Below are positions 12,525 to 44,603 of a stretch of 64,000 nucleotides of DNA, piece by piece. Origin of the DNA: a virus. Below the pieces are notes generated by a model. It saw nothing but the letters and a program-made list of their open reading frames with translations, ran no database searches and was not told the origin of the DNA. A program made the position numbers and the translations under genes. The stretch lies in the IMG/VR virus record IMGVR_UViG_3300004154_000012, one strand, 5' to 3'. How positions within the stretch are numbered: the stretch's first letter is position 1; every line of letters begins with the position of its first letter.

Positions 12525-12553
12525 GGTAGGTTGCTACCTACCTACTTAGCTAC
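12525..12553 (+). promoter_or_regulatory. dispersed GCTACCTACCTAGCTA-type element, copy a
   Basis: GGTAGGTTGCTACCTACCTACTTAGCTAC between the terL stop (12550) and the portal start. Contains GGTAGG-N6-CCTACC symmetry. Confidence 0.6.
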
Positions 12554-14595
12554 TCGCGTGGAATGAACACGACGCACGCCGGGTCCTTCGGCGCCACCGA
12601 GAAATGACGCTCGGTGCACTGCCCATCAACGAAGGCGGTGCATCGCCCGCACACCCCGGCCGGCAGATCGTCAATCAGCTTGACGACGTTGGCCGGCAGG
12701 CCCGGCATGGCCTCCACCAGTTTCTGAGCCACGGCCGCCTGTGGCCTCACGTCGGGCATGATGAAGGTGTTCGTGCCGTGTGCGCGCGCCCAGGCGACAT
12801 CGCACAGCATATTCGCGTATGAAAAGTGCGGGTCGATCCCCACCTTCTTGACCGACCGGCGGAAGGCGTTGGTCTCGTCATCCTTCTCCGCCACCAGCGC
12901 CGTCTTGGTGAAGTGGAGGAATGCGCGCGGCAGGACCGGCACCGTCTGCCGCACCCCCTTCTCCCGCACCTCCTGCACAAGCCCCTGACGGTCGGGGAAG
13001 AGGCAGATGGTCTGCGTGAGGCGGGCCATGGCGACCTGCATGCACTTGTACTGGTCGAGCCGGACGGTATAGCGGTCGCGCTCGGCCTCGGCGGTGCGGC
13101 GCTCGGACACATCGAGCCGTGGTGCATCCCCCCACTGGATCATGCCCTCCTTCAGCGACCCGTAAGAATCGCAGATGAAGACCTTGCCCTTGTGGCGGTT
13201 GGCGAAGCGCTTGGCGTCGTTGTAGTTCGGGTTGATTTCGACCACGCACGCCGCGACGCCATAGGTCTCCATCAGCTCCGAGCAGCGGGCGAAGGGATTT
13301 TCACTGTAGACCTCCTCAACATGGATCACCGCCTGCCGACCGTCGGGCAGGCGCTCTTTGATGATCACGCAGTTGAAATTGCCCATCTGGTCGATGCCCA
13401 TGAACGTGCCTTGCGCCCGCGTCTTCCAGACAAGCCCGGCGGCAATGCCGGTCTTCTCGCACGCGGCCAAATGCTCCAGCGTCACCGGGACTTGGCTGGG
13501 ATCGAGGTATGGCTTGCCCAGCTTTCGATTGTAAAAATTCTTCAGGTCCGTGGCAGAGTTGTAGGCATACAGGATTTCGCCGGCGGAAATTGTCGGGGAG
13601 AGGAACTGCGGGAAATGGATGCTGCGGATGCGGAGCGGCCGATCCTTCTTCGGAATCGCGTAGTCGATCGGCTGGTCTGCGTCTGGATTGTCCGCGATCC
13701 AGGCCCCCCGCTGCGGATCATCGATCCAGTGACCAGCCTCGCACACATACCGATCAGCGTGTCGGATCGGGTCCCATTTGATGCAGGCTGGGAAATAATC
13801 GTCCAGAGGTTTGCGCCGGCCGCACTCCGGGCATTCGGTGTGGAACCGGTATTGCGACCCTCGCTTGTACCAGTGGTTAATATCGGAATCTGGCCAGTTG
13901 GCCGTCGAGCCCATCAGCACGAAGCGGATCGGGGAAGCCGACAGACGTTCCAGCGTCTTCTCCATCTGTTCCAGGCTCATTTCCTGGACTTCATCGAAGG
14001 AGAGGACATCCATCGGGATCGACTCCGTGGTCGCCCGGCCGGAGGTCCACGAGAAGATGAACAACGCCTCACCAACGCGCCGACGGGTCACGTTGCCTTC
14101 GCCCGCCTTGCGGCCGCTGCCATCCTGCGCCTCATGCGTCATCAAGGCATGGACGGAGGGGACCGACCGGACGATCGGCATGAAGCGCTCGGTCGACTTC
14201 ACCCCGGCGAGGTTCATGTCGGGCAAGAACATGCCCACGGTGGCCGGGCCGAACCGGAGGCCCAGGTAGATGGTGGCCAACATCTCCATGACGGTAAATC
14301 CGACCTGCGCGCACTTCTGGAGGACCAGCACGAAACGATAGGCCTCGTCCTCCGTGCTGGGGACCTGGTCATAAATCCAGGCCATGGCCGGGCGGTCATC
14401 CAGCTTGAAGGCCTTCCCGTCGACCTTCATCCCCTCGTCCCCCAGCTTCTCGACCCACTGCCGGAACGTCATGCCGGGCGGGATCGGGCTCTTGAGGGCA
14501 CCGGTGGTCAGGTTCAGTTCGCGCTCCAGAGCCGCGATCATGCGGTTTTGCGCCGCCCGTGATGTCTCCAGAGGGTTCTGCCGCCCGACCGCCAT
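12550..14595 (-). CDS. terL: terminase large subunit (lambda GpA-like)
   Basis: 681 aa. ATPase signature LQKCAQVGFT (GpA-type K-x-A-Q/R-V-G), Walker B VLSFDEVQE, Cys-rich C-terminal tail. Sits between the small terminase and portal. Confidence 0.85.
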   Translation of the reverse strand: MAVGRQNPLETSRAAQNRMIAALERELNLTTGALKSPIPPGMTFRQWVEKLGDEGMKVDGKAFKLDDRPAMAWIYDQVPSTEDEAYRFVLVLQKCAQVGFTVMEMLATIYLGLRFGPATVGMFLPDMNLAGVKSTERFMPIVRSVPSVHALMTHEAQDGSGRKAGEGNVTRRRVGEALFIFSWTSGRATTESIPMDVLSFDEVQEMSLEQMEKTLERLSASPIRFVLMGSTANWPDSDINHWYKRGSQYRFHTECPECGRRKPLDDYFPACIKWDPIRHADRYVCEAGHWIDDPQRGAWIADNPDADQPIDYAIPKKDRPLRIRSIHFPQFLSPTISAGEILYAYNSATDLKNFYNRKLGKPYLDPSQVPVTLEHLAACEKTGIAAGLVWKTRAQGTFMGIDQMGNFNCVIIKERLPDGRQAVIHVEEVYSENPFARCSELMETYGVAACVVEINPNYNDAKRFANRHKGKVFICDSYGSLKEGMIQWGDAPRLDVSERRTAEAERDRYTVRLDQYKCMQVAMARLTQTICLFPDRQGLVQEVREKGVRQTVPVLPRAFLHFTKTALVAEKDDETNAFRRSVKKVGIDPHFSYANMLCDVAWARAHGTNTFIMPDVRPQAAVAQKLVEAMPGLPANVVKLIDDLPAGVCGRCTAFVDGQCTERHFSVAPKDPACVVFIPRE

Positions 14596-14599
14596 GTCG

Positions 14600-15208
14600 T
14601 TACATTCCGAATTGCGCGTTGACCTGCCGGAACTTCATCAAAATGCGCTCGACCAGGGCCGGGTCCTCCTCACGCAGCACCTGGAAAATCGCTTCATGGA
14701 ATCGCTCCACATGCACCACCGCCAGCATGGCCTCTTGGAGCTGGACCACGGTCTGTGCCGAGCGCCGCAGGTGTTCCGACGCCGCCAGCAGCAGCTTCAC
14801 GTTCCGCAGCTTCCCTTCTTCAGTCCGCGAGTGAGCCATGAGCTCCTCGGCGATAGCGATGCACTGCCGCAGCTTGTCGACCACCGACACCACCCCGCCG
14901 GTCTCGACCAGTGTGGAGACATCCGGCATCGGCGGCAGGACCTCGACCGCCTCCCGCGCCGCATCGGCGGCGGGGTCCGCCGTCCGCTGCGCCCGCGCCT
15001 CGGCCTCCCGCTGCACCACCTTGCCGAGGTGGGCGCCAGCGCGGCCGCTCTTCTCCAGAGCGTCCAGCCAGCGATAGAGGGTGCTCTGCCCGATCCCTCG
15101 GGATTTGAACTCGCCGACCAAGCCAGCCCGGTCGAATTGATCGCCGTATTGCTCGATCAGCTTCAGCGCTCGCGCTTCGAACTCTGCCCGATCTTCCTTC
15201 CGCGCCAT
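14600..15208 (-). CDS. terS: terminase small subunit (putative, HTH)
   Basis: Start refined to ATG 15208 (MARKEDRAEF...), which overlaps the TGA of the upstream gene (TGATG). HTH-like GIGQSTLYRWLDALEKS. Directly precedes terL. Confidence 0.6.
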   Translation of the reverse strand: MARKEDRAEFEARALKLIEQYGDQFDRAGLVGEFKSRGIGQSTLYRWLDALEKSGRAGAHLGKVVQREAEARAQRTADPAADAAREAVEVLPPMPDVSTLVETGGVVSVVDKLRQCIAIAEELMAHSRTEEGKLRNVKLLLAASEHLRRSAQTVVQLQEAMLAVVHVERFHEAIFQVLREEDPALVERILMKFRQVNAQFGM

Positions 15209-15765
15209 CAGATTGCCCCACCTTGCCGAAGAGCGTCGATGAAGCTGCGAATGTCGGGAGCCCACGCGCCATAGCGCTTCACGACCGCATTGAACTCCTC
15301 CATGTCGTGTCCGGCGATGGCCCACACGGGCCGACCGTCATCCCGAAATTTGGGTTCGCCTTCTTTATCGAGGGCCACGGTGCAATGCGACAGCTCGTGA
15401 TAGACCAGGATTTCGCGCTGGCGCGGCGTGGCGACGCTCCACCACCCCTTATCAAGGGTGATGATATAGTCCGGCACTCCCTGGAACATGCACGCCAGCA
15501 TCCAGGTGCAGAACGGCTTGGTCGATCCTTGGAAGACGGGCCGCCAGCATTCGCCCAGGATCATGCGTCCTTGGCGCACCTTCGGCTCGCACCGGATGAG
15601 GAACAGCAACCGCGCCTCTCCTTCGCGCAGAAACACGAACTCCGGCAGATCGGCGACCAAGCGCGCGGCAATCTCGCGCGGCTCGTCCTGACCGTCAGTC
15701 GGCAGTTCGAACAACTCCTCGGGCGGCAGCTCCTCATCCACCGAACAGACCTCCATCCACGGCAA
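15208..15765 (-). CDS. putative phage metallopeptidase (HExxH)
   Basis: 185 aa with the zincin-like motif LVYHELSHC. Positioned upstream of terS, as in many phages. Confidence 0.65.
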   Translation of the reverse strand: MPWMEVCSVDEELPPEELFELPTDGQDEPREIAARLVADLPEFVFLREGEARLLFLIRCEPKVRQGRMILGECWRPVFQGSTKPFCTWMLACMFQGVPDYIITLDKGWWSVATPRQREILVYHELSHCTVALDKEGEPKFRDDGRPVWAIAGHDMEEFNAVVKRYGAWAPDIRSFIDALRQGGAI

Positions 15766-16030
15766 CAGGCCCCCTTGCCTTGCGCGTCAACTTGTCCGCC
15801 GCCGTCTCCTCGACCATTTGGGCAAGGATTTCGTAGGGATTGGCCGCCGTGCGCATGGGATTCGGCGCACAGCGGTATCCGGGCACGCCACAGGCGCACA
15901 GCGCGGCGACGCGCCCTTTGGCCTCGACGCCGCAGAGCGAGCATCGGAAGGTGCCATCCCGCTCCAGCACACGCCCGATCCCGCAGTGCCGACAACAGTG
16001 CGGGGTGAGTGTCCAGCCGCTGTCCCTCAC
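15734..16030 (-). CDS. small Cys-rich (zinc-ribbon-like) protein
   Basis: 98 aa with CCRHC...CSLC and CACG...C pairs. Overlaps both neighbours. Start uncertain. Confidence 0.4.
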   Translation of the reverse strand: MRDSGWTLTPHCCRHCGIGRVLERDGTFRCSLCGVEAKGRVAALCACGVPGYRCAPNPMRTAANPYEILAQMVEETAADKLTRKARGPVAVDGGLFGG

Positions 16031-16581
16031 AGGCCCAACTCCAACTGGACCGCAGCGGCAGCCGCCACCCGTGGGTGGCGGACCAGCGGCGCCGCTGGCC
16101 GACTGAACGCCAGAGATCCCGATCCGGTCGCCGCCCTGCCCAGCACCAGCATGCTCTCCGCCGCATTGGTGACGCGGCGCACGACATGGAGGCGCAGTAT
16201 GCCGTCACGGACGATCAGGACCTTGTCGTCATGCAGAATGGCGGTGAGCCGCGGCACGCCGCCTTTTGCGTTCCGCCCCCGCAGTGCCTCGCGCTCACGG
16301 TTGTAGCAGGAGACGCACAGGCGCCCGTTGATGAGACGCGAGGCCTGCCTCTGGCAGCGAGGGCACAGACACTGGAGTGATTCTACGGTGGCCGCAGTCG
16401 CCGGTAGCGGCTTGCCAGCATGGGCTGCCCCGATGGGGCAGGTCCGACAGTGCCAACGACCTTCCCACGGCTCCGGACGCTTGCGCTCCGCCGCTTGCCA
16501 AGACGCAGCGCAGCTCACCTTGGTGAGGCTCAGTGCGCGCCGGTCGCAGCGGAACAGCTCCAGTTCCATGGTTTGCCCCAT
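16027..16581 (-). CDS. Cys-rich protein with multiple CxxC pairs, function unknown
   Basis: Start refined to ATG 16581 (MGQTMELELF), with GGAG 9 nt upstream. Contains CRTC, CPRC and CVSC pairs. First gene downstream of the 16593-16689 regulatory region. Confidence 0.5.
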   Translation of the reverse strand: MGQTMELELFRCDRRALSLTKVSCAASWQAAERKRPEPWEGRWHCRTCPIGAAHAGKPLPATAATVESLQCLCPRCQRQASRLINGRLCVSCYNREREALRGRNAKGGVPRLTAILHDDKVLIVRDGILRLHVVRRVTNAAESMLVLGRAATGSGSLAFSRPAAPLVRHPRVAAAAAVQLELGL

Positions 16582-16592
16582 CGGTGTAACTC

Positions 16593-16689: not shown

Positions 16690-17263
16690 GCTTGCCTTTT
16701 CGCCCAAGCATGCCCAGCAAGTCGAGAGGACTGCCGCCGTTCTTGTCCTTGCTTCGCTGCACCACCGACACGCCCAGCACCGCGAGCGACGTCACCCACG
16801 GGATGGTCATGGCGTCGACCAGAGAGGCGATCCCGGCCAGAATTTCTCGCGCCTCCGTCGCATGCCCCATCATACCGGCGATGGTGGCGCCGACGACAGA
16901 GATACAGACAGCAAACGTCTGCGCCACCCATGCTCGGGCCGACCAGTAGCCCCAATACGGTCGCCAGCGCCGCACGTATTCGTCAGCGCTGTTGGCCTCC
17001 GCGCGGATGGTCTCATTGACGATCCGTAAGCGCTCGGTGTCCTCACGCTCGACAGCCAGTAGCGCGTCGCTCGCAATCTTCTGCGCCTGAAGTAGGAGGG
17101 TGGGATCGGCTTTGAGCGCGGCGACAGCCGCCTCCGGTTCCGTTTGGCCGGTGAGCGCTTGCACGGCCGGCACCAAGGCCCCCGCGACTTTACCGGCTTT
17201 TTCATCGGCCAAGCCGATCAGATTTGGGATTAGCGGCAGCAACGCCATGAGAAAACCGAGCAT
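16685..17263 (-). CDS. holin, 3-TM type (GTA-holin/DUF3154-like)
   Basis: 192 aa. N-terminal amphipathic region, then ANSADEYVRRWRPYWGYW followed by hydrophobic helices, the pattern I associate with 3TM holins. Adjacent to the endolysin gene. Confidence 0.6.
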   Translation of the reverse strand: MLGFLMALLPLIPNLIGLADEKAGKVAGALVPAVQALTGQTEPEAAVAALKADPTLLLQAQKIASDALLAVEREDTERLRIVNETIRAEANSADEYVRRWRPYWGYWSARAWVAQTFAVCISVVGATIAGMMGHATEAREILAGIASLVDAMTIPWVTSLAVLGVSVVQRSKDKNGGSPLDLLGMLGRKGKP

Positions 17264-17321
17264 GATGACCTCACATTGTCAGGTGCATGTTGTGACCGAC
17301 CTCCGCAGAGGCCTTCGGATT

Positions 17322-18185
17322 TCAGTCCAGGTCGCCATCAAACGCGGCGACCGTCTTCGGCCCGACGACACCGTCCGCAACAAGACGATGGTCGATCTGG
17401 AATTTTTCGACTGCGATTTCGGTGGCGCGACCAAATGCTCCATCAAGGGCCAAGTCCGCACCGTGCCGATTGAGCGCGGATTGCAGTCGTTTGACCGCCG
17501 GGCCACGCGCGCCGATGCGCAGCATCGCAACGGCGGACACCGACGACGTCGGGATGGCCTGAACCTGTCGAGCGGCCGTCGCACCCGCCCGCTCGACGGC
17601 TTCAGCGTAAGCGACGGCCAACTTGCTGTCGTACTGGTTCTCACGGTACCGAGCACCGTTGTAGCCCTCGGCGAAGGCTGCCCAATCATGAACGCGAAGC
17701 ACTGGCGCAAGCCCAGCGTGCAGCACAAACACGCCGAATGCCTGGAGTTGGGCGAACTCAGATTCTGCCATGGCCGCGACGAATTCCTCGACATCGGCGA
17801 ATCCGCAGGCGCGACAGTTCGCCCCCAAAACCTGGAACATGCCCCAGGACGCGGATTTCAGCGCCGCGGCGCGATCGAGGCCGACAGCCTCCTCCAGCCG
17901 GAGGTATTCCCCGGCCCCGCCCTTGTAGAGCTTGCGGTTCCAGGACGGCGAGGAGATGCCCGGGTGGGTCTCGTCATGCCGACCTTCGGTCGCGGCCGAG
18001 AACTTGTGCGCCTCAAACAGGATGCGCGGGCGGCCGGAGCCGTCGGAAAGGAAGCCGCCACAGCCGCCGGTCTCGACGGTCAGGACGGCTTGCACGGCGG
18101 GAAGATCGCAGCCCAACAGCGTCGCAACATACTGCATGTCGGCAGCGCCAAGCGGGCGGGCGGCGCCGGAGAAGGGGAGGGGCAT
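17322..18185 (-). CDS. endolysin: N-acetylmuramidase (DUF3380-like) plus C-terminal peptidoglycan-binding domain
   Basis: Start refined to ATG 18185 (GAGG SD). ILFEAHKF, ASWGMFQVLG and AEGYNGARYRENQYDSKL blocks. C-terminal GPAVKRLQSALN...DGAFGRATEIAVEKFQ...DGVVGPKT is PG_binding_1-like. Confidence 0.85.
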   Translation of the reverse strand: MPLPFSGAARPLGAADMQYVATLLGCDLPAVQAVLTVETGGCGGFLSDGSGRPRILFEAHKFSAATEGRHDETHPGISSPSWNRKLYKGGAGEYLRLEEAVGLDRAAALKSASWGMFQVLGANCRACGFADVEEFVAAMAESEFAQLQAFGVFVLHAGLAPVLRVHDWAAFAEGYNGARYRENQYDSKLAVAYAEAVERAGATAARQVQAIPTSSVSAVAMLRIGARGPAVKRLQSALNRHGADLALDGAFGRATEIAVEKFQIDHRLVADGVVGPKTVAAFDGDLD

Positions 18186-18225
18186 AGCAGCCTCGTGAGG
18201 GAGATGGGTACCCCACGAGTGTCGC

Positions 18226-18233
18226 GTCACGAC
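18226..18233 (-). promoter_or_regulatory. GTCGTGAC junction motif copy
   Basis: Starts 3 nt after the upstream TAG. 40 nt to endolysin ATG 18185, with a small hairpin (CTCGTGGGG...CCCTCACGAG) in between. Confidence 0.6.
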
Positions 18234-18236
18234 CGC

Positions 18237-18824: not shown

Positions 18825-18861
18825 GGTGGCCTCCAAGGAAGAGTTACCCCTCCATGAGGCC

Positions 18862-18869
18862 GTCACGAC
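18862..18869 (-). promoter_or_regulatory. GTCGTGAC junction motif copy
   Basis: 37 nt upstream of ATG 18824. Lies about 75 nt downstream (in the transcription sense) of element copy b. Confidence 0.6.
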
Positions 18870-18944
18870 CCGAACGAGAACGCCATCTTGCACAGGTCCT
18901 TCGCGGCGACCACGCGATCCAGCTCCGCCAGTGGGAGAATAGCA

Positions 18945-18988
18945 ACCTATATACCTATATACCTAGATAGCTACTTACCTAGCTATCT
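18945..18988 (+). promoter_or_regulatory. dispersed element copy b, and candidate recombinase core site
   Basis: Three tandem 8-mers (ACCTATAT, ACCTATAT, ACCTAGAT; 18945-18968), then the inverted repeat AGATAGCTA-cttacc-TAGCTATCT (18965-18988), which contains GCTACTTACCTAGCTA. Abuts the recombinase stop codon. Confidence 0.55.
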
Positions 18989-19608
18989 TAAATCAGCGCC
19001 ACGACTCGCCGCTTGGCATCGGAATCGCCCTCGATGTACCGCTGTGTGGTGGTGAGGTTGGAGTGCCCGGCCAGTTGCTGCACGTCGCGCAGCGAGCCGC
19101 CCGCCTTGCTGATCTGCCGTGCGGCCCGGGTGATGAAGGTCCGCCGACCGGAGTGACTGGAACACCCATGGAAGCCCAAGGCCCGGTACATCGCCTGGAA
19201 AAGCTGGACGATTGAACGGGGCGTCATGGATTGAACGCATGCCGTGCCGGGCTCGTGCGGGTCCTCCCGCACCGCCCGCTCCGACCGCACGAGCGGCCAT
19301 GCCGGCGACGCATCGTCCTCACCCAGCAGCTCCGCAATCGCATCCCGGAGGAGCGGGTGCATCGGCACCAAACGGCCGGAGCCCTTTTTACAGATCCGGT
19401 TCTCCAGGTGGATCACATCATCGACGGCGCCCAGCGCGTCGGTGACGTGATAGCGGCAGAGGCCGGCAATCTCCATCGCGCGGAGCCCGGCCTTCACCGA
19501 CAGCAGCACCACCACCTTGTTGCGCAGCGGGTAGCGCGCGGTCTCGCACCAGGCCAGCATCCGCTCGACCTGTGCATCAGAGAGGATTTTCGCTTGCTTA
19601 CCAGCCAT
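18988..19608 (-). CDS. short tyrosine recombinase, catalytic domain only
   Basis: 206 aa. R in AGLRAMEIAGL, HxxR in HSGRRTF, and LAGHSNLTTTQRY supplying the His and the nucleophile Tyr. No N-terminal arm-binding or SAM-like domain. Confidence 0.8.
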   Translation of the reverse strand: MAGKQAKILSDAQVERMLAWCETARYPLRNKVVVLLSVKAGLRAMEIAGLCRYHVTDALGAVDDVIHLENRICKKGSGRLVPMHPLLRDAIAELLGEDDASPAWPLVRSERAVREDPHEPGTACVQSMTPRSIVQLFQAMYRALGFHGCSSHSGRRTFITRAARQISKAGGSLRDVQQLAGHSNLTTTQRYIEGDSDAKRRVVALI

Positions 19609-20077: not shown

Positions 20078-20108
20078 TACGCCAGACGTCGCTCCTTGTC
20101 ATCTCCTG

Positions 20109-21128: not shown

Positions 21129-21598
21129 GCATCACCTCGCCTCGCCTTATTAAGCATCCGCGCGGCCTCACGCATAATAGGGTCTGCCGCGCTCAGACGT
21201 CGGCGCGCGGCATGAAGAGAATCGCGGGAAGACTGTGGGCCGCGACTTCCCATTGTCACCCGGTTGATCTCATTCAGGGCGTCAAGCAGGTCGCGCATGA
21301 CTTCCGCCTCTCGGGAGGTCTCGCCATTGAACCGCAGTCCGCGAGCCTTCATGTCGTTCACACACGCGGCCAATACGGCTTCCGGGTCCGGCTCCTTGGC
21401 GCATACGGCGAGAAGCACTTCACGGTCAACCGGGCCACGGACGATCACGCGACACATGTCCACGACGTGACCGGCAGTCAGGTGGTCATCCACGGATTCC
21501 CTCCTTTGGCTGGGGTGCATAGGCAGCCTAGCCATCACGCTCTCCGGGGTGTCGTCGCCCTGGGTCGCAGCGGGCGTTTCGGGGGTGGGGTTGGTCAT
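21125..21598 (-). CDS. hypothetical protein
   Basis: 157-aa ORF. Its ATG 21598 lies exactly 14 nt after an ATCGTGAC motif variant. Confidence 0.5.
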   Translation of the reverse strand: MTNPTPETPAATQGDDTPESVMARLPMHPSQRRESVDDHLTAGHVVDMCRVIVRGPVDREVLLAVCAKEPDPEAVLAACVNDMKARGLRFNGETSREAEVMRDLLDALNEINRVTMGSRGPQSSRDSLHAARRRLSAADPIMREAARMLNKARRGDA

Positions 21599-21612
21599 GG
21601 CTGGTCCTTTTC

Positions 21613-21620
21613 GTCACGAT
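21613..21620 (-). promoter_or_regulatory. junction motif variant ATCGTGAC
   Basis: ATCGTGAC-GAAAAGGACCAGCC-ATG, 14 nt to ATG 21598. Sits in a 105-nt gap that also holds a degenerate CCTACCTAG element (21674-21688). Confidence 0.5.
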
Positions 21621-21673
21621 TGGTTGGCCCTGCGGCGATGAACGCAGCAAAAAGACCGGCCAATATGAAAATT

Positions 21674-21688
21674 CCTAGGTAGGCAAGC
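21674..21688 (-). promoter_or_regulatory. possible sixth, degenerate copy of the dispersed element
   Basis: Reverse complement reads GCTTGCCTACCTAGG. It lies in the 21599-21703 gap, or in a doubtful 34-codon ORF. Confidence 0.3.
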
Positions 21689-21703
21689 GCGGCTTCCATG
21701 GCG

Positions 21704-26429: not shown

Positions 26430-26834
26430 TCACGCCTTCTGCGGTTCGCCCGCGACGGCGCTGGGGGCCATGGCGCGGCAGAGGTTGAAGATCGCGGTGC
26501 GGGCGCCGTCGTCCTGGATCAACGACCACTGATGCGCGAGCTTCCGAGCCGCCCGGTCGGTCGTGGCCAGGGTGTCGTCGCCCTGGTGCACGCCATCCAA
26601 CCCGTCGTAGAAGTAGGAGATTGGAACATCGAGGGCGCGGGCGAGCTGGACCAGCGCGCCAGCACTGATGCGGTTGCCGCCACGCTCGTACTTCTGCATC
26701 TGCTGGAACGAAACACCAACTTCGGCGCCAAGCTTCTGTTGGCTGACACCGCGCAGCTCGCGCAGCTCGCGCAACCGGTTCGCAATGTGCTGGTTGGCGA
26801 CCGCAGCGGCTGGGCATTTCAGGGCACGGGACAT
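26430..26834 (-). CDS. XRE-family helix-turn-helix regulator
   Basis: Start refined to ATG 26834. LRELRGVSQQKLGAEVGVSFQQMQKYERGGNRIS is a canonical Cro/CI-type HTH. Confidence 0.8.
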   Translation of the reverse strand: MSRALKCPAAAVANQHIANRLRELRELRGVSQQKLGAEVGVSFQQMQKYERGGNRISAGALVQLARALDVPISYFYDGLDGVHQGDDTLATTDRAARKLAHQWSLIQDDGARTAIFNLCRAMAPSAVAGEPQKA

Positions 26835-26842: not shown

Positions 26843-26872
26843 CCTTAGTAGGTAGGTAGCTAGGTATATATG
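26843..26872 (-). promoter_or_regulatory. dispersed element, copy c
   Basis: Reverse complement reads TATATACCTAGCTACCTACCTACTAAGG. It ends at the TAAGGA Shine-Dalgarno of the XRE gene. Confidence 0.6.
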
Positions 26873-26919
26873 GTTTAACCGGCCCACAGGGAGGGTGCGA
26901 GCCGGTCGCCGTTTGGACT

Positions 26920-27921
26920 TTAGTCGCGGCCGGAACGCGGGGTCTCCGGCCTGCCGAGGAACAGCGGCAGGCCGGTCTCCTCGCGGGCCTTCGCGCAGGC
27001 CTGCCGCAGCGCGTCATTGGACACCATGTCGGCACGGTAGAGTTCATAGAACCAGTTCAGGGTCGGGCCGACTTTCCGGTAGCGCAGCCGGACCACGACG
27101 CGGTACCGGGCGCCATGCTCGAAGACCGGGATGGCGATGCAGAAGAGGTTCGGCACATCCAGCTTCTGACCGGCGGAGTCGGTGTGCTCCGTCTCGAAGG
27201 TGATGTTGCCTTCACCGCTGGAGAGGTTCGTCGCCGCGACCACCTTGGCGTTCTCGTGGACCGCCAGACTGCGGGACAGGTCCATCAGGCGCTCGGGGCC
27301 CGCAAACCGGCCGTTGATCAGCGTGGCGAGGCGCTGGAGATGAGCATCGGCCTCCGAAATCTGCCCCTCGAAGGTCGGGGGCGGCAAAATGTCGATGCCA
27401 CGATCCTCCAGAAAGCTCGCGAACTCGGTCTGCGTCATCTTCCGACCGTTGTTCGTCGTCCAGGCCTTCCACTCGTCCGCCAGCGGGAACTCGTACAGGA
27501 CGCGGTGCCGGCCGAACCGGGGCAGGGCATCGGGGCGGAAATCTGTCAGGCCTTCGGTGTCGTCGGGGGCAGGCGGGACGTTGACACGCTCGTGATAGTC
27601 GAGCACGGCCAACAGCGACGGGCTGGGGGCGTTCGCATCGGCGAACAGGGCCGTGTTGTCGTCCTTGAAGCGGTTCGTCAGAGCGATGAAGGAGTCCAGG
27701 TCCTGCATCACAGCCGTGCCTTCGCGGCGATCCGGGCGCTGACGGTATTCCTCCAGGAAGGGCCGGACCGACTTGGCCTCAAGCCCCTTGGGCACGAGCA
27801 TGATCTCGACCTGCTCCTCGTGCCCGGCGACAAAGCCGACGCGCTGGAGAGCCGCGCCTTCGGACATATGCTGAAGAAGAAATTGGCCGAGACCGGCGAG
27901 GTTGCTTTCGGTGGGAACCAT
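26920..27921 (-). CDS. conserved phage protein (DUF2303/YfdQ-like, tentative)
   Basis: 333 aa. The DLDSFIALTNRFKDDNTALFAD...LAVLDYHE pattern resembles YfdQ-type proteins as I recall them. Confidence 0.55.
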   Translation of the reverse strand: MVPTESNLAGLGQFLLQHMSEGAALQRVGFVAGHEEQVEIMLVPKGLEAKSVRPFLEEYRQRPDRREGTAVMQDLDSFIALTNRFKDDNTALFADANAPSPSLLAVLDYHERVNVPPAPDDTEGLTDFRPDALPRFGRHRVLYEFPLADEWKAWTTNNGRKMTQTEFASFLEDRGIDILPPPTFEGQISEADAHLQRLATLINGRFAGPERLMDLSRSLAVHENAKVVAATNLSSGEGNITFETEHTDSAGQKLDVPNLFCIAIPVFEHGARYRVVVRLRYRKVGPTLNWFYELYRADMVSNDALRQACAKAREETGLPLFLGRPETPRSGRD

Positions 27922-29201: not shown

Positions 29202-29241
29202 GGCGTGTCATGTCGTGGCCGATTATGACCCACAGGCTTCC

Positions 29242-29249
29242 GTCACGAC
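29242..29249 (-). promoter_or_regulatory. GTCGTGAC junction motif copy
   Basis: 40 nt upstream of ATG 29201, and 40 nt downstream of the 34-bp palindrome (29289-29322). Confidence 0.6.
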
Positions 29250-29288
29250 CCATCGCGGAATAGCGCCGTCGCGGCCCACTTGCTACCG

Positions 29289-29613: not shown

Positions 29614-29686
29614 GATGATGGCCCCTCCTTGGGGCTGCGATGGTGCGTGGGTGCAATGCCTCGATCTTGAGGACCATCAGCTTCGC

Positions 29687-29694
29687 GTCACGAC
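29687..29694 (-). promoter_or_regulatory. GTCGTGAC junction motif copy
   Basis: Begins 6 nt after the terminator feature 29701-29740 (12 nt after the first U of its U-tract). 73 nt upstream of ATG 29613. Confidence 0.6.
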
Positions 29695-29700
29695 CGCTGG

Positions 29701-29872: not shown

Positions 29873-30460
29873 TCAGAAGGTCGTCACGACCGGCCCAGCG
29901 CCATCATCAGCGTTGGCCCGGCGCAGAAGGATGTCCCCGTGGCAGGGGGAGCCCAAGCGACACCAGCAGCCCAAATTGCGCCCGCGGAGCTGGGGCAGGG
30001 CGTCGAGGACACGTCGGGCATGATCGGGAGCCGGCACGAAGGCCAGCACCACCCCCGTCTCCGGGCCGCACGCGAAGGTCTCGCCGCCCGGGTTGCTCAG
30101 GTATCGGTCATAGTAGGCGACTGCGGCCGCGACGTGCTCCGGGTTCTTGGGGTCGATCGGCCGGAACGGATTCCCCAATAGCTTGTTCGTGCGGTCGACC
30201 TTGACGGTTCCGGGCGGCAGCCGGGCACCGCGCCGACGGGAAAGTTGGAGGCGTTGGGGCTGGCCGGTCTCCAGCCCCCCCATGACAAGGGTGCGGCGGC
30301 ATCTCGGACAGGTCACAGCGTCGGGCCTGAGTGTCCATGTCGCACGGACCAGATCAACGGCGCGCGGTTTGACGAAGCACGCCGCTGAAACGCCTCCAGC
30401 ACCGTTGACAGCGGCGGCCATATGGACGATCCGCGTTGGCACCGTGGGGTGGTCATGCAT
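29873..30460 (-). CDS. DUF4326-like protein
   Basis: Start refined to ATG 30460. LLGNPFRP, then ...LRGRNLGCWCRLGSPCHGDILL at the C-terminus, matches the DUF4326 pattern as I recall it. Confidence 0.55.
   Translation of the reverse strand: MHDHPTVPTRIVHMAAAVNGAGGVSAACFVKPRAVDLVRATWTLRPDAVTCPRCRRTLVMGGLETGQPQRLQLSRRRGARLPPGTVKVDRTNKLLGNPFRPIDPKNPEHVAAAVAYYDRYLSNPGGETFACGPETGVVLAFVPAPDHARRVLDALPQLRGRNLGCWCRLGSPCHGDILLRRANADDGAGPVVTTF
29883..29890 (-). promoter_or_regulatory. GTCGTGAC motif copy in the last codons of the DUF4326-like gene
   Basis: Encodes ...PVVTTF*, so it may be coding coincidence or a functional copy ahead of the 260-nt gap. Confidence 0.35.
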
Positions 30461-40009: not shown

Positions 40010-40071
40010 AACGTTTTCCTGGCATCAAAGTTGATATGAGCACTGGGATTGCCAGCGCTGGAGAGACCGCT

Positions 40072-40452: not shown

Positions 40453-40802
40453 CCCACCGCCTCCGTTCCAACCGTCCTTAGCGTCAGCACCGACACCGCG
40501 GCCTGCATCAGGTCTCCAGCCAGTTCCAGCGCGCGGTAAGGCGTCAGCAGGACAACCTGCGGCTCGCGATCGCCATAGACGCACAATGAAGGTGGGGTGG
40601 TGCCGTTCGGCTGCACCACCAGAATGCGGGTGGCGTCATCAACGACGGCTCGCGCCGGCGTCTCGCGTGCCTGCCGCTCGTATTTGTCCATCCATGCCAG
40701 CACCGCCGCTTCGGTCGCCGCGCGCAGCTTCCGACCGGTGCGGAGTTGGAAGACGAAGGCCGGATCCTTGAGGGCCAACCTTCCGAATTTCGTCGGGGAC
40801 AT
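40449..40802 (-). CDS. Cro-like early regulator (putative HTH)
   Basis: Start refined to ATG 40802 (GGGAG SD). MSPTKFGRLALKDPAFVFQLRTGR. Divergent from the CI-like gene. Confidence 0.5.
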   Translation of the reverse strand: MSPTKFGRLALKDPAFVFQLRTGRKLRAATEAAVLAWMDKYERQARETPARAVVDDATRILVVQPNGTTPPSLCVYGDREPQVVLLTPYRALELAGDLMQAAVSVLTLRTVGTEAVG

Positions 40803-40984
40803 AGGGTACTCCCGTAGGAACACCTCAACTCTTTTGCATAGGTTCGTCATGGATCGTAGGATTACCCCACGCTAGGCGTGCCGACAAGCCCGTTCCTATG
40901 GGTTGCGGCGACCCTCGATTGGAAATACCTTCGGAACCATGTATTGAGACGCTCCTACAGGGGCCAAACAGACAGGATGAACGA
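40803..40984. promoter_or_regulatory. divergent immunity promoter/operator region
   Basis: CGTAGGAA 40813, CATAGGTT 40837, CGTAGGAT 40855, palindrome CACGC-TAG-GCGTG 40868-40880, TTCCTATG 40893, CTCCTACAG 40953. Confidence 0.55.
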
Positions 40985-41653
40985 ATGTCGCAGCCGCTGG
41001 AGCCCCAGCGTCAGCTCGTGCTCGACCGCGTGCAGGAGCTGGGCCTTACTCTCAATGGGGTTAGCCGAGCGATCGGTCGCAACGCCGCCTATCTGCACCA
41101 GTTCGTTCACCGAAAGACACCGCGTTACCTGCCAAGAGATACCCGCGAGGCGCTGGCCGTTGTGCTTGGTGTACGGGAGGAGGTTCTGCGGTTTCCGGAC
41201 GAGCCAGCCCCTCCCCCGGCGTTGATGAGCGCGCGGACCTCACTGGCGCGGACACGAACCTTTGGGATTGCGAACCGGCCGACCCACCTGGAGGAAGCCC
41301 CGCGCGATGTTCCCCTGTTTCGTGAAACCGACCAGATTGAGCCTGCCATGGCGAGGGAGGCCGCTCTACGGCCGACCCATCTGCCAGCCGCTGGACCTCT
41401 GGTCGCGGTGTGGATCACCCGCCACTCGGGCCGCCTACGCCCTGGCGACCTTGCGTACATCAGCTTGTCTCAGCCGCCGCGACCTGGCGACATCGTTGTT
41501 GTGCTGAAGGACAAGCGGATTGCGGCCATTGGCGATCTGGTCGGGTTGACTAACGGAACCGCCTCTGTGCTCGCTGAGAGCGGGCGCGATCCGGAGGACT
41601 TCTCACGCGATTCGGTGGAGATCTGCAAGGTACTGGCTGTCACTCTTGCGTAG
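40985..41653 (+). CDS. CI-like repressor: N-terminal HTH plus S24/LexA-like C-terminal domain
   Basis: Start refined to ATG 40985. LNGVSRAIGRNAAYLHQFV HTH. The C-terminal LRPGDLAYISLSQPPRPGDIVVVL...KVLAV has an S24-like beta pattern, but I could not see a clear Ser-Lys dyad. Confidence 0.65.
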   Translation: MSQPLEPQRQLVLDRVQELGLTLNGVSRAIGRNAAYLHQFVHRKTPRYLPRDTREALAVVLGVREEVLRFPDEPAPPPALMSARTSLARTRTFGIANRPTHLEEAPRDVPLFRETDQIEPAMAREAALRPTHLPAAGPLVAVWITRHSGRLRPGDLAYISLSQPPRPGDIVVVLKDKRIAAIGDLVGLTNGTASVLAESGRDPEDFSRDSVEICKVLAVTLA

Positions 41654-41755
41654 AAATTTTCTGTCGTTCTGTTTCTGTTCCACCATCTGCCGCGACATTT
41701 TCACAATGTTGTTAACCCCAGGCTGACCCCCCAGGCGTTTTCTTTCGGCCATCAT

Positions 41756-41792
41756 CGTAGGATTTTACAATATCACTATTGTTGATCCTACG
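41756..41792. promoter_or_regulatory. operator-like palindrome CGTAGGAT-N21-ATCCTACG
   Basis: Perfect 8-bp arms flank an AT-rich spacer (TTTACAATATCACTATTGTTG), 56 nt upstream of the 41848 gene. Confidence 0.55.
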
Positions 41793-41847
41793 CCTTCCTC
41801 GTAGTCTGTCGGGCTAGAAATCGCCCACGCCAGACAAAGGAAAGACA

Positions 41848-42516
41848 ATGCTGGCAACCGTACCGACTCCCACGGAATCAGGTGCTGCGGTCAAGACTGG
41901 CACCCTGCCGATTGGCCCGATCAACACCCGCACGGTGTCGGCTCGCCTCGGTATTTCGGTTGCCTCTCCCGACATTACGCTCGACGGCCGCCCCTGTGGC
42001 CGGATTGTCAGGGAGGTCCAGGGGGCTCGTGGGGTGTGGGTCGCCACGTTGACTGACGTGGAAGGGCACCGTGGCGGGTTGATCGAGAATGGCTCCTTCG
42101 CCGAGGTCCAAAAGCAGGTGGTCCTGAAGGTGGTCGACATTTTACGTCGCCACTATCCAGACGCAGATTGGGGGGCGTTGACGCTGAATGCTACACCCGG
42201 CGAGCTGGCCGCAATCCGCGACGGCACGCGACGCGTGCTCCGATATGCATATGCCGCGCGTTTCAGCGGCAAAGCCTGTCCGGTGGGTCGCCATGTGATT
42301 ATCGCTAATTACTACCTGAGACGGCAGGATAGAGAATATCTGCATGGGAAAATTGTCGAAGCGAAGAAGGTTCCGCGTGAAAAAGTTGTTGCGGAAGACC
42401 CTAACTTGCGCTGGAGCTTTCCAAATGACAAATCAATAGCAGAGATATACTTTGATCTTTGTCCTTATGGATCGGCCTCAATAGAATTGTCTGAAGAAAT
42501 TCAGCACGAAAGCTGA
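41848..42516 (+). CDS. hypothetical protein, moron downstream of the repressor
   Basis: 222 aa, co-oriented with the CI-like gene. The 3' third is visibly AT-richer than its surroundings. No motif recognised. Confidence 0.55.
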   Translation: MLATVPTPTESGAAVKTGTLPIGPINTRTVSARLGISVASPDITLDGRPCGRIVREVQGARGVWVATLTDVEGHRGGLIENGSFAEVQKQVVLKVVDILRRHYPDADWGALTLNATPGELAAIRDGTRRVLRYAYAARFSGKACPVGRHVIIANYYLRRQDREYLHGKIVEAKKVPREKVVAEDPNLRWSFPNDKSIAEIYFDLCPYGSASIELSEEIQHES

Positions 42517-42553
42517 CGCCACGTTTACCAACAGGGCTGATGCCGTCCAGTCC

Positions 42554-42588
42554 GCTAGGTAGGTTGGTAGCGACCTAGCTAGTTACCT
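42554..42588 (-). promoter_or_regulatory. dispersed element, copy d
   Basis: Reverse complement of 42554-42571 reads GCTACCAACCTACCTAGC. CTAGGT-N12-ACCTAG symmetry. About 25 nt upstream of ATG 42614. Confidence 0.55.
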
Positions 42589-42613
42589 GCAATCCTATCA
42601 GTTCGAAGGATCT

Positions 42614-42808
42614 ATGATGGCCAAGCCCAGGTATCTCAATCAGCGCGAGGCCGCGAGGTACATCGGCCTATCGGAGCGGCATCTGCGCCACCTGGAGACC
42701 CGTGGTGAGGGGCCTCTCAGCGCCAAGATTGGACGCAGCAAGCGGTATGATGTTGCGGACCTGGATGCGTGGATGGAAGAGAGGAAGGCGCCGCACACGG
42801 GCGATTAG
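42614..42808 (+). CDS. AlpA/MerR-like HTH protein
   Basis: 64 aa. YLNQREAARYIGLSERHLRHLETRGEGP...RYDVADLDAWM. Confidence 0.6.
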   Translation: MMAKPRYLNQREAARYIGLSERHLRHLETRGEGPLSAKIGRSKRYDVADLDAWMEERKAPHTGD

Positions 42809-43134
42809 ATTGAACCGGCCTGCGCCTTGCCGGGATCAATTTCAGGCCGTGACAGATCGACGAGAGCATCAGCCACGAGCAGCCAATGTCGCTCGCTTTC
42901 CTCGCCTGCTACGCGAGCGTGGCGCAGGGCGATTGATATGCGTATGCAAGCGGTCAGTCGTCCATCCGGGCATGACTGAAGGTGGGATTCGAGTTCCTCT
43001 TCAATCTCTACGAGTTCCATGAACACTTTGTCGTGGTGTGCAGAGTCTTCTGCTGGCACCTGAACCACGCTGGCCAGCGCATCGGTGCGCGCCTGCAATA
43101 TCTTCCACTTGTCCCACAGCCGCTCGACCACCAC
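42805..43134 (-). CDS. hypothetical protein
   Basis: 109-aa ORF, convergent with 42614..42808 (4-nt overlap). Confidence 0.4.
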   Translation of the reverse strand: MVVERLWDKWKILQARTDALASVVQVPAEDSAHHDKVFMELVEIEEELESHLQSCPDGRLTACIRISIALRHARVAGEESERHWLLVADALVDLSRPEIDPGKAQAGSI

Positions 43135-43358
43135 CCGATACCCCCACCGCCTTGATGTCCAATCTGACCCATTGGGATGCGTGGGATTATCCTATAGGCG
43201 GCAGGTTGTTTCGTCATAGTTAAAATGTGTTGCGAAATCCGACGCGTGCATCGGGTTCACCCCACCCGCGTATCGCAATGCCCTGCGACACAGCAGCACA
43301 TCCTTAGGTGCCTAAGTTATTACAGGAATGTAATCCACGCAACAATGGAGCGGCAGGC

Positions 43359-43391
43359 GTTAGAAAGTTAGATTCTCTTGTTAGAAAGTTA
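43359..43391 (+). repeat. two 12-bp direct repeats, GTTAGAAAGTTA
   Basis: Copies at 43359-43370 and 43380-43391 (21-nt register), in the AT-rich part of the origin region. Palindromes CTTAGGTGCCTAAG (43303-43316) and ATTACAGGAATGTAAT (43319-43334) lie just upstream. Confidence 0.7.
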
Positions 43392-43435
43392 CAGGGCTGA
43401 AAACATCCATATTTCCAGCATGTTATGATGGTTTG

Positions 43436-43522
43436 AGGTTCGCGAAATACCGACGGTAGGTTCGCGAAATACCGATCCTTGAGGTTCGCGAAATACCGAC
43501 GGTAGGTTCGCGAAATACCGAT
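43436..43522 (+). repeat. oriV iterons: four copies of the 19-mer AGGTTCGCGAAATACCGA(C/T)
   Basis: Copies start at 43436, 43458, 43482 and 43504 (spacing 22/24/22 nt), directly 3' of repA. Confidence 0.9.
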
Positions 43523-43523
43523 C

Positions 43524-43541
43524 TAATCCACATATCCACAG
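43524..43541 (+). promoter_or_regulatory. two DnaA-box-like 9-mers
   Basis: TAATCCACA and TATCCACAG abut the last iteron (consensus TTATCCACA). Confidence 0.5.
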
Positions 43542-43582
43542 AGCAGGACGGCTTGTCGCTGTTTAGAAATCTGATGTGTGAA

Positions 43583-44443
43583 CTACTTCACTTGACGTAC
43601 GTGCGTATGCGGTTCTCTAGCGACGCGCGGCTCGAACAGGACTGTCGCGCGGTCTAGGATGTTGCGTCGGCCGATCGGAGTGATAAGGCTGATTCGGTAT
43701 GTCGGCAGGTTGTCGGCTTCGATGATCCGGCGCAGGTCGCTCGCGAAGAGCTTCAACGGTCGCGCGGTGCCGACCTTGTCGGCCAGTTTGCCGAGCCCAA
43801 TGGTCCATTCTTGCTGGTTGCCGAGGTGTTTACGCGCCAGCTCGTACAGCCGCCGTTCCAGGCCGCCAGTGAGGCCGAAATAATCGCGGCTGATAGCCAG
43901 GATGCGACGCTCTTCCACCAGAGCCCTGAACATCCACTCGTTGAGGGTAACTTCAATAGCAGTCATGACCCGCTTGCCGACCCGAGTGTCCCGCTCCACC
44001 ACCCGGTAGGTTTCGATCCAACCGAAGCCTCGGCGCTCGCGCTGATCTGCGGCTTCGATCGTCGTCTTGATATGCGTGCTTCGCAGCCTGTCCAGCGCGT
44101 CCAACAGCAGTTCATAGGCCCGCTTGCCGGTGCCACGGCCCGTGACTTTCAGCAGATCATGCGCCGCGAATTGGACTTTCCTGTCGACTGGCGCACCACG
44201 CTCCAGGCGGTCATTGAGGAGGCTGACGACGTAGATCATCACGTCCTTGTCCCATATCGTCGCGACGCCCTTGGCTCCAGGCTCGATGCGGATAGAGACC
44301 TTGCCGTCACAGAACTCCATCGGCGTCATTCGCGGTCGCTTCTCCAAGCTGAAGAACGGGAACTCCAACAGAGCGCGATCCTGTCGCAACGGCGTGTTGA
44401 CCACGCTGTCCAGAAAGAGGTCCACCTGCTGTTCCGTAGTCAT
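43583..44443 (-). CDS. repA: plasmid replication initiator RepA (RPA family)
   Basis: Start refined to ATG 44443. LLEFPFFSLEKRP, GVATIWDKDVMIYVVS and RRLYELARKHLGNQQEW are hallmark blocks. Iterons lie on both sides. Confidence 0.85.
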   Translation of the reverse strand: MTTEQQVDLFLDSVVNTPLRQDRALLEFPFFSLEKRPRMTPMEFCDGKVSIRIEPGAKGVATIWDKDVMIYVVSLLNDRLERGAPVDRKVQFAAHDLLKVTGRGTGKRAYELLLDALDRLRSTHIKTTIEAADQRERRGFGWIETYRVVERDTRVGKRVMTAIEVTLNEWMFRALVEERRILAISRDYFGLTGGLERRLYELARKHLGNQQEWTIGLGKLADKVGTARPLKLFASDLRRIIEADNLPTYRISLITPIGRRNILDRATVLFEPRVAREPHTHVRQVK

Positions 44444-44457
44444 GCTCCACTCCGCTG

Positions 44458-44538
44458 AAGTTCGCGATGTACCGACTCCGCAGCGCGGGGCGGGAATAGG
44501 TTCGTGATGTTCCGACCTCAGGTTCGCGTTATACCGAC
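44458..44538 (+). repeat. three degenerate iterons in the repA promoter region
   Basis: AAGTTCGCGATGTACCGAC (44458), AGGTTCGTGATGTTCCGAC (44498), AGGTTCGCGTTATACCGAC (44520). Confidence 0.8.
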
Positions 44539-44576
44539 TCTGTCCTTCCGGTCGCAAGCTCCTCATGCGATGCGAC

Positions 44577-44603
44577 ACCTACCTACCTAGCTATTTACCT
44601 CTA
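44577..44603 (+). promoter_or_regulatory. dispersed element, copy e (parA upstream)
   Basis: ACCTACCTACCTAGCTATTTACCTCTA, just upstream of a CATAAT hexamer (44608) and about 47 nt before the parA GTG. Confidence 0.6.

Follow-up and report, generated by a model that had tools for sequence, protein, structure and literature searches.

We found that a stretch of 64,000 nucleotides (the window) of the DNA of IMG/VR virus record IMGVR_UViG_3300004154_000012 contains exactly five arrays of tandem 4-bp units of the form NNTA, and that arrays of this type are associated exclusively with one family of small ribbon-helix-helix (RHH) proteins, represented here by a protein of 98 amino acids (aa) encoded directly after a ParA-type ATPase. 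The window is 64 kb out of a circular genome of 82,044 bp with a GC content of about 63%; the whole genome is available as contig Ga0209373_10000348 of JGI metagenome 3300027796, and was recovered in Logan assemblies too. The arrays are likely to be the cognate sites of the type Ib partition system of this phage-plasmid, with the RHH protein as the binding partner and the arrays as dispersed centromeres. That the RHH protein binds the arrays is, in our judgement, if anything slightly more likely still, and we hold any particular role of the scattered copies with less confidence than binding.

Tandem arrays of NNTA units

A preliminary description of this DNA had listed five intergenic sites sharing a 16-bp element. 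The quoted sequences were present at their coordinates in all five cases, and the sites were strongly enriched over shuffled sequences. The sequence CCTACCTA occurs 6 times, against 0.19 occurrences expected from dinucleotide shuffles, and the 16-mer consensus gave 10 matches with at most 3 mismatches, all of them within the five loci, against an expected 0.07. The enrichment of the 16-bp element was therefore upheld, but the fixed consensus was not, as the order of units differs at every site and in every lineage. Since unit order is specific to site and lineage, we replaced the 16-bp consensus by an array of period 4.

Each of the five arrays consists of 5-11 tandem NNTA units, mostly CCTA, GGTA or GCTA. 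A scan of the window for at least 3 NCTA units out of 5 consecutive ones detected only the five loci, with a mean of 0.1 in shuffled sequences. A second scan, requiring TA at a 4-bp period in at least 4 of 5 units, returned exactly the same five loci and found none in 30 first-order Markov simulations. TA accounts for only 1.6% of the dinucleotides, and the arrays are the AT-richest tracts of this genome. In the NNTA register, CCTA and GGTA units and the self-complementary GCTA all fall in one phase. The varying orientation noted earlier was thus observed, but because units that appear opposite share a phase, it reflects the choice of units within one array type and not separate orientations. 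The genome as a whole has seven arrays, at about 12.5, 18.9, 26.8, 42.6, 44.6, 68.4 and 73.5 kb.

Array 1 (12525-12556; GGTA GGTT GCTA CCTA CCTA CTTA GCTA) is located in the gap between terL and the portal gene; its first unit holds the stop codon of terL, and its other end is 46 nt before the portal start. Array 2 (18938-18989; CCTA TATA CCTA TATA CCTA GATA GCTA CTTA CCTA GCTA) is the longest, with about 11 units, and follows the stop codon of a tyrosine recombinase gene (18988-19608, minus strand), ahead of the 195-aa/muramidase lysis cluster. Array 3 (26843-26874) comes after a hairpin 3' of a DUF2303 gene and abuts the Shine-Dalgarno (SD) sequence of the gene for an XRE-type regulator. Array 4 (42552-42587; GCTA GGTA GGTT GGTA GCGA CCTA GCTA GTTA CC) has nine units in a single register and ends about 25 nt ahead of the ATG of an HTH_17 gene, while array 5 (44570-44601; CCTA CCTA CCTA GCTA TTTA CC) is found in the gap between repA and parA. 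The two remaining arrays belong to the 18 kb that the window does not cover, in a region of head and neck genes, and are given here in the coordinates of the source contig L107: one at 294-329 (GTAT CGTA AATA CCTA TTTA CCTA GGTA GCTA) and the other at 5380-5415 (GGTA GCAA GGTA AGTA TCTA TAAA GGTA GGTA GCTA). The latter fills a 30-nt gap between structural genes and reaches the next ATG. The proposal that every copy is promoter-proximal fits neither array 1, at the terL stop, nor the array in the 30-nt gap.

Arrays 1, 2 and 4 read TAGN on the coding strand, and the stop codon of terL is itself the first unit of array 1, as might be expected if the arrays were all-frame translational stops, (TAGN)n, that insulate neighbouring genes from read-through. 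However, arrays 3 and 5 are oppositely oriented relative to the downstream gene, and neither the 5-11 units nor the association with bacterial par loci described below is explained in this way. We consider such a function highly improbable.

A weaker sixth copy had also been suggested at 21674-21688. This site has only two units, has no counterpart in relatives, and lies inside a 34-codon open reading frame (MEAALAYLGIFILAGLFAAFIAAGPTNRDEKDQP; 21595-21699, minus strand) that encodes a small hydrophobic peptide, has a strong SD sequence and occupies a gap left empty by the source gene caller. For these reasons the sixth copy was dropped.

Conservation of the arrays in related phages

Three relatives of the RHH protein were found at 77-83% identity, and their contigs, together with others obtained with proteins of the window, were grouped into lineages B, C and D. 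An array was present in every syntenic gap that these sequences cover (numbering the gaps as the arrays), that is, in gaps 1-5 of lineage B, gaps 2-5 of lineage C and gaps 4-5 of lineage D, bearing out the conservation at syntenic gaps that the preliminary description had set as a check. No extra arrays were seen in about 100 kb of sequence from lineages B-D.

The order, number and orientation of units vary between lineages, while the position of the array, its length of at least 5 units and its TA phase persist. In gap 1, for which one relative (L081/L082) was available, substitutions are found at the free positions of the units and the imperfect unit TAAG is replaced by TAGA, with the TA phase kept. 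Gap 2 has three unit orders in three lineages, that of lineage C being (GGTA GGTA GGTA AATA) twice. The array in gap 3 is kept in lineages B and C with gains and changes of units, the number of units in gap 5 likewise changes between lineages, and in gap 4 both orientation and order differ in all four lineages. Turnover of units at a fixed position, length and TA phase is the pattern that would be expected of a degenerate, multi-unit binding array.

Local dyad symmetry had been pointed out at several copies. The single relative available also has the dyad GGTAGG-N6-CCTACC of position 12525, whereas AGATAGCTA-N6-TAGCTATCT at 18965, a perfect 9-6-9 dyad within array 2, is present in the window but absent from lineages B and C. 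This comparison bears on whether the arrays could be targets of the 206-aa recombinase in multimer resolution, or alternatively RepA iterons or origin elements. Array 2 adjoins the recombinase gene and contains the perfect dyad, and array 5 is in the repA-parA gap, as the two functions would respectively have it. A core site for the tyrosine recombinase was nevertheless rejected: besides the loss of the dyad in lineages B and C, a 91-aa gene is inserted in lineage C between the recombinase gene and array 2, which has remained beside the lysis cluster. The dyad loss and this insertion together removed the recombinase-site idea. The repA-parA gap, for its part, has three conserved direct repeats of its own, of about 24 nt each (consensus AGGTTCGYGWTRTWCCGAC; 44455-44540, upstream of repA). 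These are kept in four lineages, are unrelated in sequence to the 4-bp arrays, and are probably the RepA iterons or origin. The arrays themselves are not direct repeats of about 17-24 bp beside rep and conserved with it, a role that the 44455-44540 repeats fill; as RepA has its own iterons, the 4-bp arrays are not needed to account for RepA. Seven dispersed copies fit neither recombination nor replication, and we regard both functions as very unlikely.

No CCTA/GCTA-type arrays were found at 80 IMG/VR terL loci (up to 75% aa identity) or in positions 1-50 kb of the Pseudomonas putida phage Dolphis; in these distant relatives, the order of the genes that follow terL varies so much that a gap-by-gap comparison is not feasible. 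A search of IMG/VR with ParA and then with a profile of the RHH family found nothing. We did observe arrays with an 8-bp period, with the unit CCTATGTA in three copies, at 16727-16758 and 17479-17502 of a Dolphis-like IMG/VR contig of 93.5 kb (L002), and these may be operators of another protein in this integrative relative.

ParA and the 98-aa RHH protein

The parA gene (44651-45355, plus strand, with the start as called in relatives) encodes a 234-aa Walker-type ATPase, the size of type Ib proteins. The sequence GNEKGGAGKTT is found near the N-terminus, and there is no N-terminal DNA-binding domain. Pfam hits were to MipZ, AAA_31, CbiA, ParA and VirC1, the PHROG assignment was ParA-like, and PDB hits included Soj and ParF. 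As in type Ib systems, this is a small Walker ParA with a deviant Walker A motif.

The gene for the candidate centromere-binding protein (45342-45638, plus strand) overlaps the end of parA by 14 nt. Its 98-aa product has a basic N-terminus (MAVPKGGVPRR), an FIAGA motif, a linker, a predicted beta-strand (KQTNVTMP) and two helices. The family shares the N-terminal pattern MA[VI]..[MV]P.[RK][RK], the motif FI[AS]GA, a linker of variable sequence, the pattern PW..P.VR.DL, and a beta-strand followed by two helices. All six members tested matched the Pfam family RHH_1 (profile positions 2-39) with E-values down to 1.4e-4, just under the gathering score, and comparison of the family profile with structures gave the CopG family at E-values of 0.02-0.05. 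In an AlphaFold2 (AF2) model of the monomer, made from four sequences, the N-terminal third was disordered and helices were placed at residues 56-70 and 74-94, with a predicted local distance difference test score (pLDDT) of 57.8. Such a model, which is of low confidence, is what an obligate-dimer RHH protein would be expected to give, and we draw nothing more from it. An RHH partner with a flexible N-terminal tail directly downstream of parA, the arrangement of type Ib systems, is thus indicated by sequence profiles and not by a confident structure.

The protein had been called ParG-like. A Pfam scan of the six members at E-values up to 1 returned RHH_1, VapB_antitoxin, CopG_antitoxin and DUF4197, with no hit to the ParG family, so that the term is true of the architecture only and does not extend to a match in sequence. 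In the beta-strand, the putative DNA-facing residues Q51 and N53 are invariant across the family, while at position 55 the phage clade has T and the bacterial clade has K. This split parallels that between the CCTA/GGTA-rich arrays of the phages and the GCTA/AAAG-rich arrays of the bacterial loci, and the difference at residue 55 may be a weak but coherent hint at DNA specificity.

Bacterial par loci with the same RHH family

Bacterial loci were identified by searching plasmids with the RHH protein (tblastn) and by scanning bacterial genomes and metagenomes with a profile of the RHH family; the metagenomes added only one further locus. In total, 10 par loci with a homologue of the RHH protein (30-44% identity) were obtained. 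Their ParA proteins are 35-39% identical to that of the phage, and the ParA gene precedes the homologue in 10/10. The hosts are Roseomonas, Pseudoroseomonas, Skermanella, an Acetobacteraceae bacterium, a Nitrospiraceae metagenome-assembled genome (MAG), a Pseudoxanthomonas MAG and a metagenome contig; named examples are Roseomonas marmotae p1318-1 and Skermanella rosea pSR-4 (Acetobacteraceae/Azospirillaceae). As far as we found, this family of RHH partners is uncharacterised, its bacterial members being annotated as hypothetical proteins.

Arrays of period 4 are located immediately upstream of parA at every one of the 10 loci, 30-75 bp ahead of the Walker A codons, with GCTA, TCTA, CCTA/GGTA and AAAG/CTTT as units (for example, GCTAGCTAGAAAGCTAGCTAGCTTTCTA). 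Downstream of the RHH gene, within about 100 bp of its stop codon, the NCTA scan detected arrays at 8 loci; at the Skermanella and Nitrospiraceae loci, with their more degenerate arrays, there was no NCTA hit downstream of the RHH gene. Elsewhere in these loci three extra arrays were found within about 1 kb, and nothing else scored. Over the first 100 kb of the plasmid of Roseomonas marmotae, no array lies outside the 1.9-kb par locus.

As a control, we inspected two plasmids whose ParA is 40-42% similar to the phage ParA but whose small partner protein is different. Neither has NCTA arrays. The array type therefore follows the family of the partner protein, and not ParA, RepA or the phage backbone. 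One of the two, pGLOV01 of Trichlorobacter lovleyi, has a palindromic repeat of its own, TTGTATATACAA, with variants, on both sides of the operon. In our coordinates for this locus (L116), the repeats are at about 2390-2480, upstream of parA, and at 3561-3580, after the partner gene, a two-sided layout with another motif. The Trichlorobacter partner has an FIAGA motif near its N-terminus, as does the phage RHH protein.

These loci bear most directly on whether the arrays might be operators through which the XRE-type or HTH_17 protein governs lysogeny and late genes as a master regulator. Array 3 abuts the SD sequence of the XRE gene and 25 nt separate array 4 from the HTH_17 start, both typical positions for autoregulation, and both genes are kept along with arrays 3 and 4 in all lineages examined. 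Yet the same type of array flanks parA and the RHH gene in 10 bacterial loci that have no HTH_17 gene and that, in 9/10 cases, have no XRE homologue. The sole XRE homologue, at the Skermanella locus, has no array upstream of it, and the only genes that phage and bacterial loci have in common are those for ParA and the RHH protein. Moreover, helix-turn-helix (HTH) proteins usually bind dyads of 14-20 bp and not 5-11 four-bp units in mixed orientation, and the dyads of the window are mostly unconserved. A master-regulator role of either protein, which had been offered for XRE in the preliminary description, thus seems unlikely. It is possible that arrays 3 and 4 serve as XRE or HTH_17 operators, which would leave the association with par loci unexplained. 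The binding of the scattered sites by the RHH protein, the main proposal of that description, gains support from the comparative evidence.

The array upstream of parA

Array 5 is directly upstream of, and overlaps, the -35 element of a putative parA promoter on the plus strand, which consists of TTTACC (44594-44599), an 18-nt spacer and TATCGT (44618-44623); the SD sequence GGAGGAGG (44636-44643, plus strand) and the GTG start codon of parA follow. The two hexamers and their spacing are kept in four lineages, while the sequence of the spacer varies, and array 5 is the best-conserved block of its half of the repA-parA gap in these lineages. The hexamers match 8 of 12 positions of the sigma-70 consensus. 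As this is below the threshold of our scan for sigma-70 promoters (-35 and -10 elements matching at least 9 of 12 consensus positions, with a spacing of 16-18 nt), which gave no hit at arrays 3, 4 and 5, the parA promoter is treated here as putative. In the bacterial loci the arrays abut the SD sequence of parA, so that the parA promoter must be embedded in them. A repeat array beside the operon that overlaps the promoter, as type Ib systems have, is thus found at array 5, where the promoter is putative, and in the homologous bacterial loci.

Overlap with promoters could also mean that the arrays are promoter or structural DNA read by host factors, such as repeated -10-like TAnnTA hexamers, UP-like AT-richer tracts, or nucleoid-protein sites with flexible TA steps, and that the phage-plasmid has no dedicated protein to bind them. 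The arrays are indeed the AT-richest tracts of a genome with 63% GC and 1.6% TA, arrays 3, 4 and 5 are placed where promoters must be, and the bacterial arrays have the position just described. On the other hand, the sigma-70 scan was empty at arrays 3-5, array 1 starts, within an operon, on a stop codon, and another of the arrays fills an intercistronic gap of 30 nt. A generic site, furthermore, would not be confined to the par locus over 100 kb, nor would it track one family of partner proteins. Operators commonly overlap promoters, and the host-factor explanation therefore overlaps with that of RHH-binding sites; taken on its own, we think it improbable.

After the stop codon of the RHH gene, at 45634-45680, CGTA, CATA, CCTA and TTTA are seen in one 4-bp register, among 11 units. 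They may be the decayed remnant of a downstream array such as most of the homologous bacterial loci have, and are not significant alone.

A probable partition protein with dispersed sites

The explanation that we favour is that the RHH protein binds all seven arrays as the DNA-binding component of a type Ib partition system. RHH dimers would be aligned side by side and cooperatively on runs of NNTA units, one dimer probably covering two units, or about 8 bp, and the recognition code of the family is probably one of NCTA units phased by 4 bp. Array 5 would be both autoregulatory operator and centromere, at the -35 element of parA, where the conserved basic N-terminus of the RHH protein could stimulate ParA. 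The six scattered arrays might act as extra points for nucleation of the partition complex around the 82-kb circle. Two of them mark the starts of the regulator genes XRE and HTH_17, one precedes the lysis cluster, and others occupy gaps between cistrons of the packaging and structural operons. Where an array overlaps a promoter or gene start, the partition protein may repress the gene, or modulate its expression, while the element is a plasmid-prophage, and arrays 3 and 4 are so placed that they could repress the XRE and HTH_17 genes. Those in late operons may be roadblocks or purely centromeric, roles that computation does not separate. Binding, cooperativity, centromere activity and effects on transcription are all what we infer from the distribution and conservation of the arrays.

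Several observations weigh against this explanation. The assignment of the arrays to the RHH protein draws wholly on co-occurrence. The RHH assignment itself falls below the Pfam threshold, and the AF2 monomer is of low confidence (pLDDT 57.8). The XRE and HTH_17 genes are conserved across the phage lineages as well as the RHH gene is, so that comparison within the phages cannot tell the three proteins apart. The bacterial arrays (GCTAGCTAG, with AAAG/CTTT units and a clear 8-bp period) resemble the CCTA/GGTA arrays of the phage but are not identical to them, which makes a common recognition an extrapolation. Unlike most of the bacterial loci, the phage lacks an array immediately 3' of its RHH gene, where few TA units are in register. 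Finally, some arrays are located within late operons without obvious regulatory logic.

A more far-reaching possibility, which we consider tentative and rather doubtful, is that the RHH partition protein is a genome-wide silencer or coordinator that couples segregation to the lysis-lysogeny programme. Partition complexes coating arrays at the XRE and HTH_17 promoters, before the lysis cluster and between genes of the packaging and head operons would restrain the lytic functions for as long as the element is maintained as a plasmid, and loss or titration of the RHH protein, for example by a rise in copy number after induction, would free them. The dispersal of sites would then be an adaptation peculiar to phage-plasmids, with an origin independent of that in phage N15. 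In that case a single protein of 98 aa would link plasmid segregation mechanically to the programme of lysis and lysogeny.

Comparison with known partition systems

Phage-plasmids must combine plasmid maintenance with a phage gene programme. In N15, a lambdoid siphovirus, partition is of type Ia, with SopB, a large HTH protein of the ParB family that spreads, and 16-bp palindromes as sites. Ravin, Rech and Lane are said to have described in 2008 that some N15 sites are near replication or late-gene elements and that Sop affects late gene expression. To our knowledge N15 is the only well-studied phage genome with scattered partition sites that affect late genes, its protein being of the ParB type. 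If our explanation is true, this element would have solved the problem a second time and independently of N15, by means of RHH proteins, the other main class of centromere-binding proteins. It would also be a case of type Ib RHH partition with dispersed sites in an uncultivated relative of the Dolphis-type myoviruses that has RepA and ParA instead of integration. The likeness to N15, which the preliminary description had drawn, holds in that both are phage-plasmids with sites, centromeric in N15 and putatively so here, at several separate loci, seven arrays in this genome. It does not extend to the SopB-type HTH protein and the type Ia ParA: here the partner is a 98-aa RHH protein, ParA is of type Ib with 234 aa, the arrays are of 4-bp units and the backbone is that of a Dolphis-like myovirus. 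The element is therefore an analogue of the N15 Sop system and not a member of it. The separate SopB sites of N15 number four, IR1-4 (PMC7205306).

ParG of plasmid TP228 coats arrays of degenerate ACTC tetramer boxes, direct or inverted, of which the promoter-proximal one is the operator and both are centromeres (PMC3130281). The ParF-ParG-parH/OF system of TP228 is like the present one in that a small ParA is followed by an RHH protein with a flexible N-terminal tail, and in that a degenerate tetramer array, operator and centromere in TP228, is located upstream of the operon. It differs in that no ParG family match was found here, in that the NNTA units lack regular AT-rich 4-bp spacers whereas the ACTC boxes have an 8-bp spacing, and in that the arrays are scattered over the replicon, while those of TP228 are clustered upstream of the operon.

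The omega protein of pSM19035 recognises runs of 7-10 contiguous heptads that overlap three promoters, and at least 4 contiguous repeats are required to activate ParA (PMC9499535). Here, too, an RHH protein (with binding predicted), contiguous short repeats in mixed orientation and separate arrays over promoters are found, and the arrays, with 5-11 units, compare with the minimum of 4 repeats of omega. One protein serves partition and regulation alike in pSM19035, as it would here. In contrast to this phage, pSM19035 is a Firmicute plasmid with 7-bp heptads whose sites are all at promoters of maintenance genes, whereas several of the present arrays are in late operons, some of them away from promoters. 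KorB of RK2/RP4 is a partition protein with dispersed sites that also has a global regulatory function (PMC3597684). It resembles the system proposed here in having sites of a partition protein around the replicon that are also regulatory, but KorB is an HTH protein of the ParB family that recognises 13-bp palindromes (OB), and RK2/RP4 is a conjugative plasmid and not a phage.

The Acetobacteraceae and Azospirillaceae par loci share with the phage a homologous ParA and RHH protein and a period-4 NCTA array beside parA, but they have clusters of arrays to either side of the operon, rich in GCTA and AAAG/CTTT units, and K at residue 55. The comparison thus delimits an uncharacterised family of RHH partners, found mostly in Acetobacteraceae and related alphaproteobacterial replicons.

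Other features of the genome

The phage genes include terL (12550-14595, minus strand), which encodes a gpA-type large terminase and has 76% nucleotide identity to the Pseudomonas putida phages Dolphis and Jeremy, the portal gene (10713-12479, minus strand), and genes for contractile-tail and baseplate proteins, a muramidase and a CI-like repressor. The plasmid module is made up of repA (43583-44443, minus strand; Pfam PF10134, E-value 2e-74), which encodes an RPA-family replication initiator (286 aa as called in relatives), the three 24-nt direct repeats, the gene for the 234-aa ParA and the overlapping gene for the 98-aa protein. The first 50 kb of Dolphis contain an integrase and no plasmid module. 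On these grounds we interpret the element as a phage-plasmid, one that would derive from a lineage of integrative myoviruses. A megablast search of 20 kb against plasmids gave no match.

The XRE-type regulator (26430-26834, minus strand) has 134 aa and matches HTH_31/HTH_3. The DUF2303 gene is at 26920-27921 on the minus strand, the hairpin being between it and array 3, and the HTH_17 gene (42614-42808, plus strand), downstream of array 4, encodes a small DNA-binding protein of 64 aa that is excisionase/MerR-like. The tyrosine recombinase next to array 2 has 206 aa, far fewer than phage integrases have, and could be a multimer resolvase of the plasmid; the gene calls examined included no full-length integrase.

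A second short motif, GGTCGTGACG, occurs in 7 exact copies and 16 copies with one mismatch, against 8.45 expected. The exact copies (12493-12502, 18225-18234, 18861-18870, 29241-29250, 29686-29695, 29882-29891 and 46603-46612, all on the minus strand) are on the coding strand at gene junctions, about 14-45 nt before the start codon where this was checked. Arrays 1 and 2 and that at 294-329 of L107 are each followed by this junction motif (GGTCGTGACG/GTCGTGAC), and GTCGTGAC is also found directly after terL in distant IMG/VR relatives. The motif is a candidate late-promoter or RNA element of the phage family.

Adjoining the portal gene is a gene (8956-10716, minus strand) for a 586-aa protein with a zeta-toxin/AAA_33 kinase domain, and at 620-7000 on the same strand a fusion protein of about 2,111 aa with N6-methylase-like and SNF2 helicase domains is encoded. 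The genome also codes for MT-A70, C5 and N6/N4 DNA methyltransferases.

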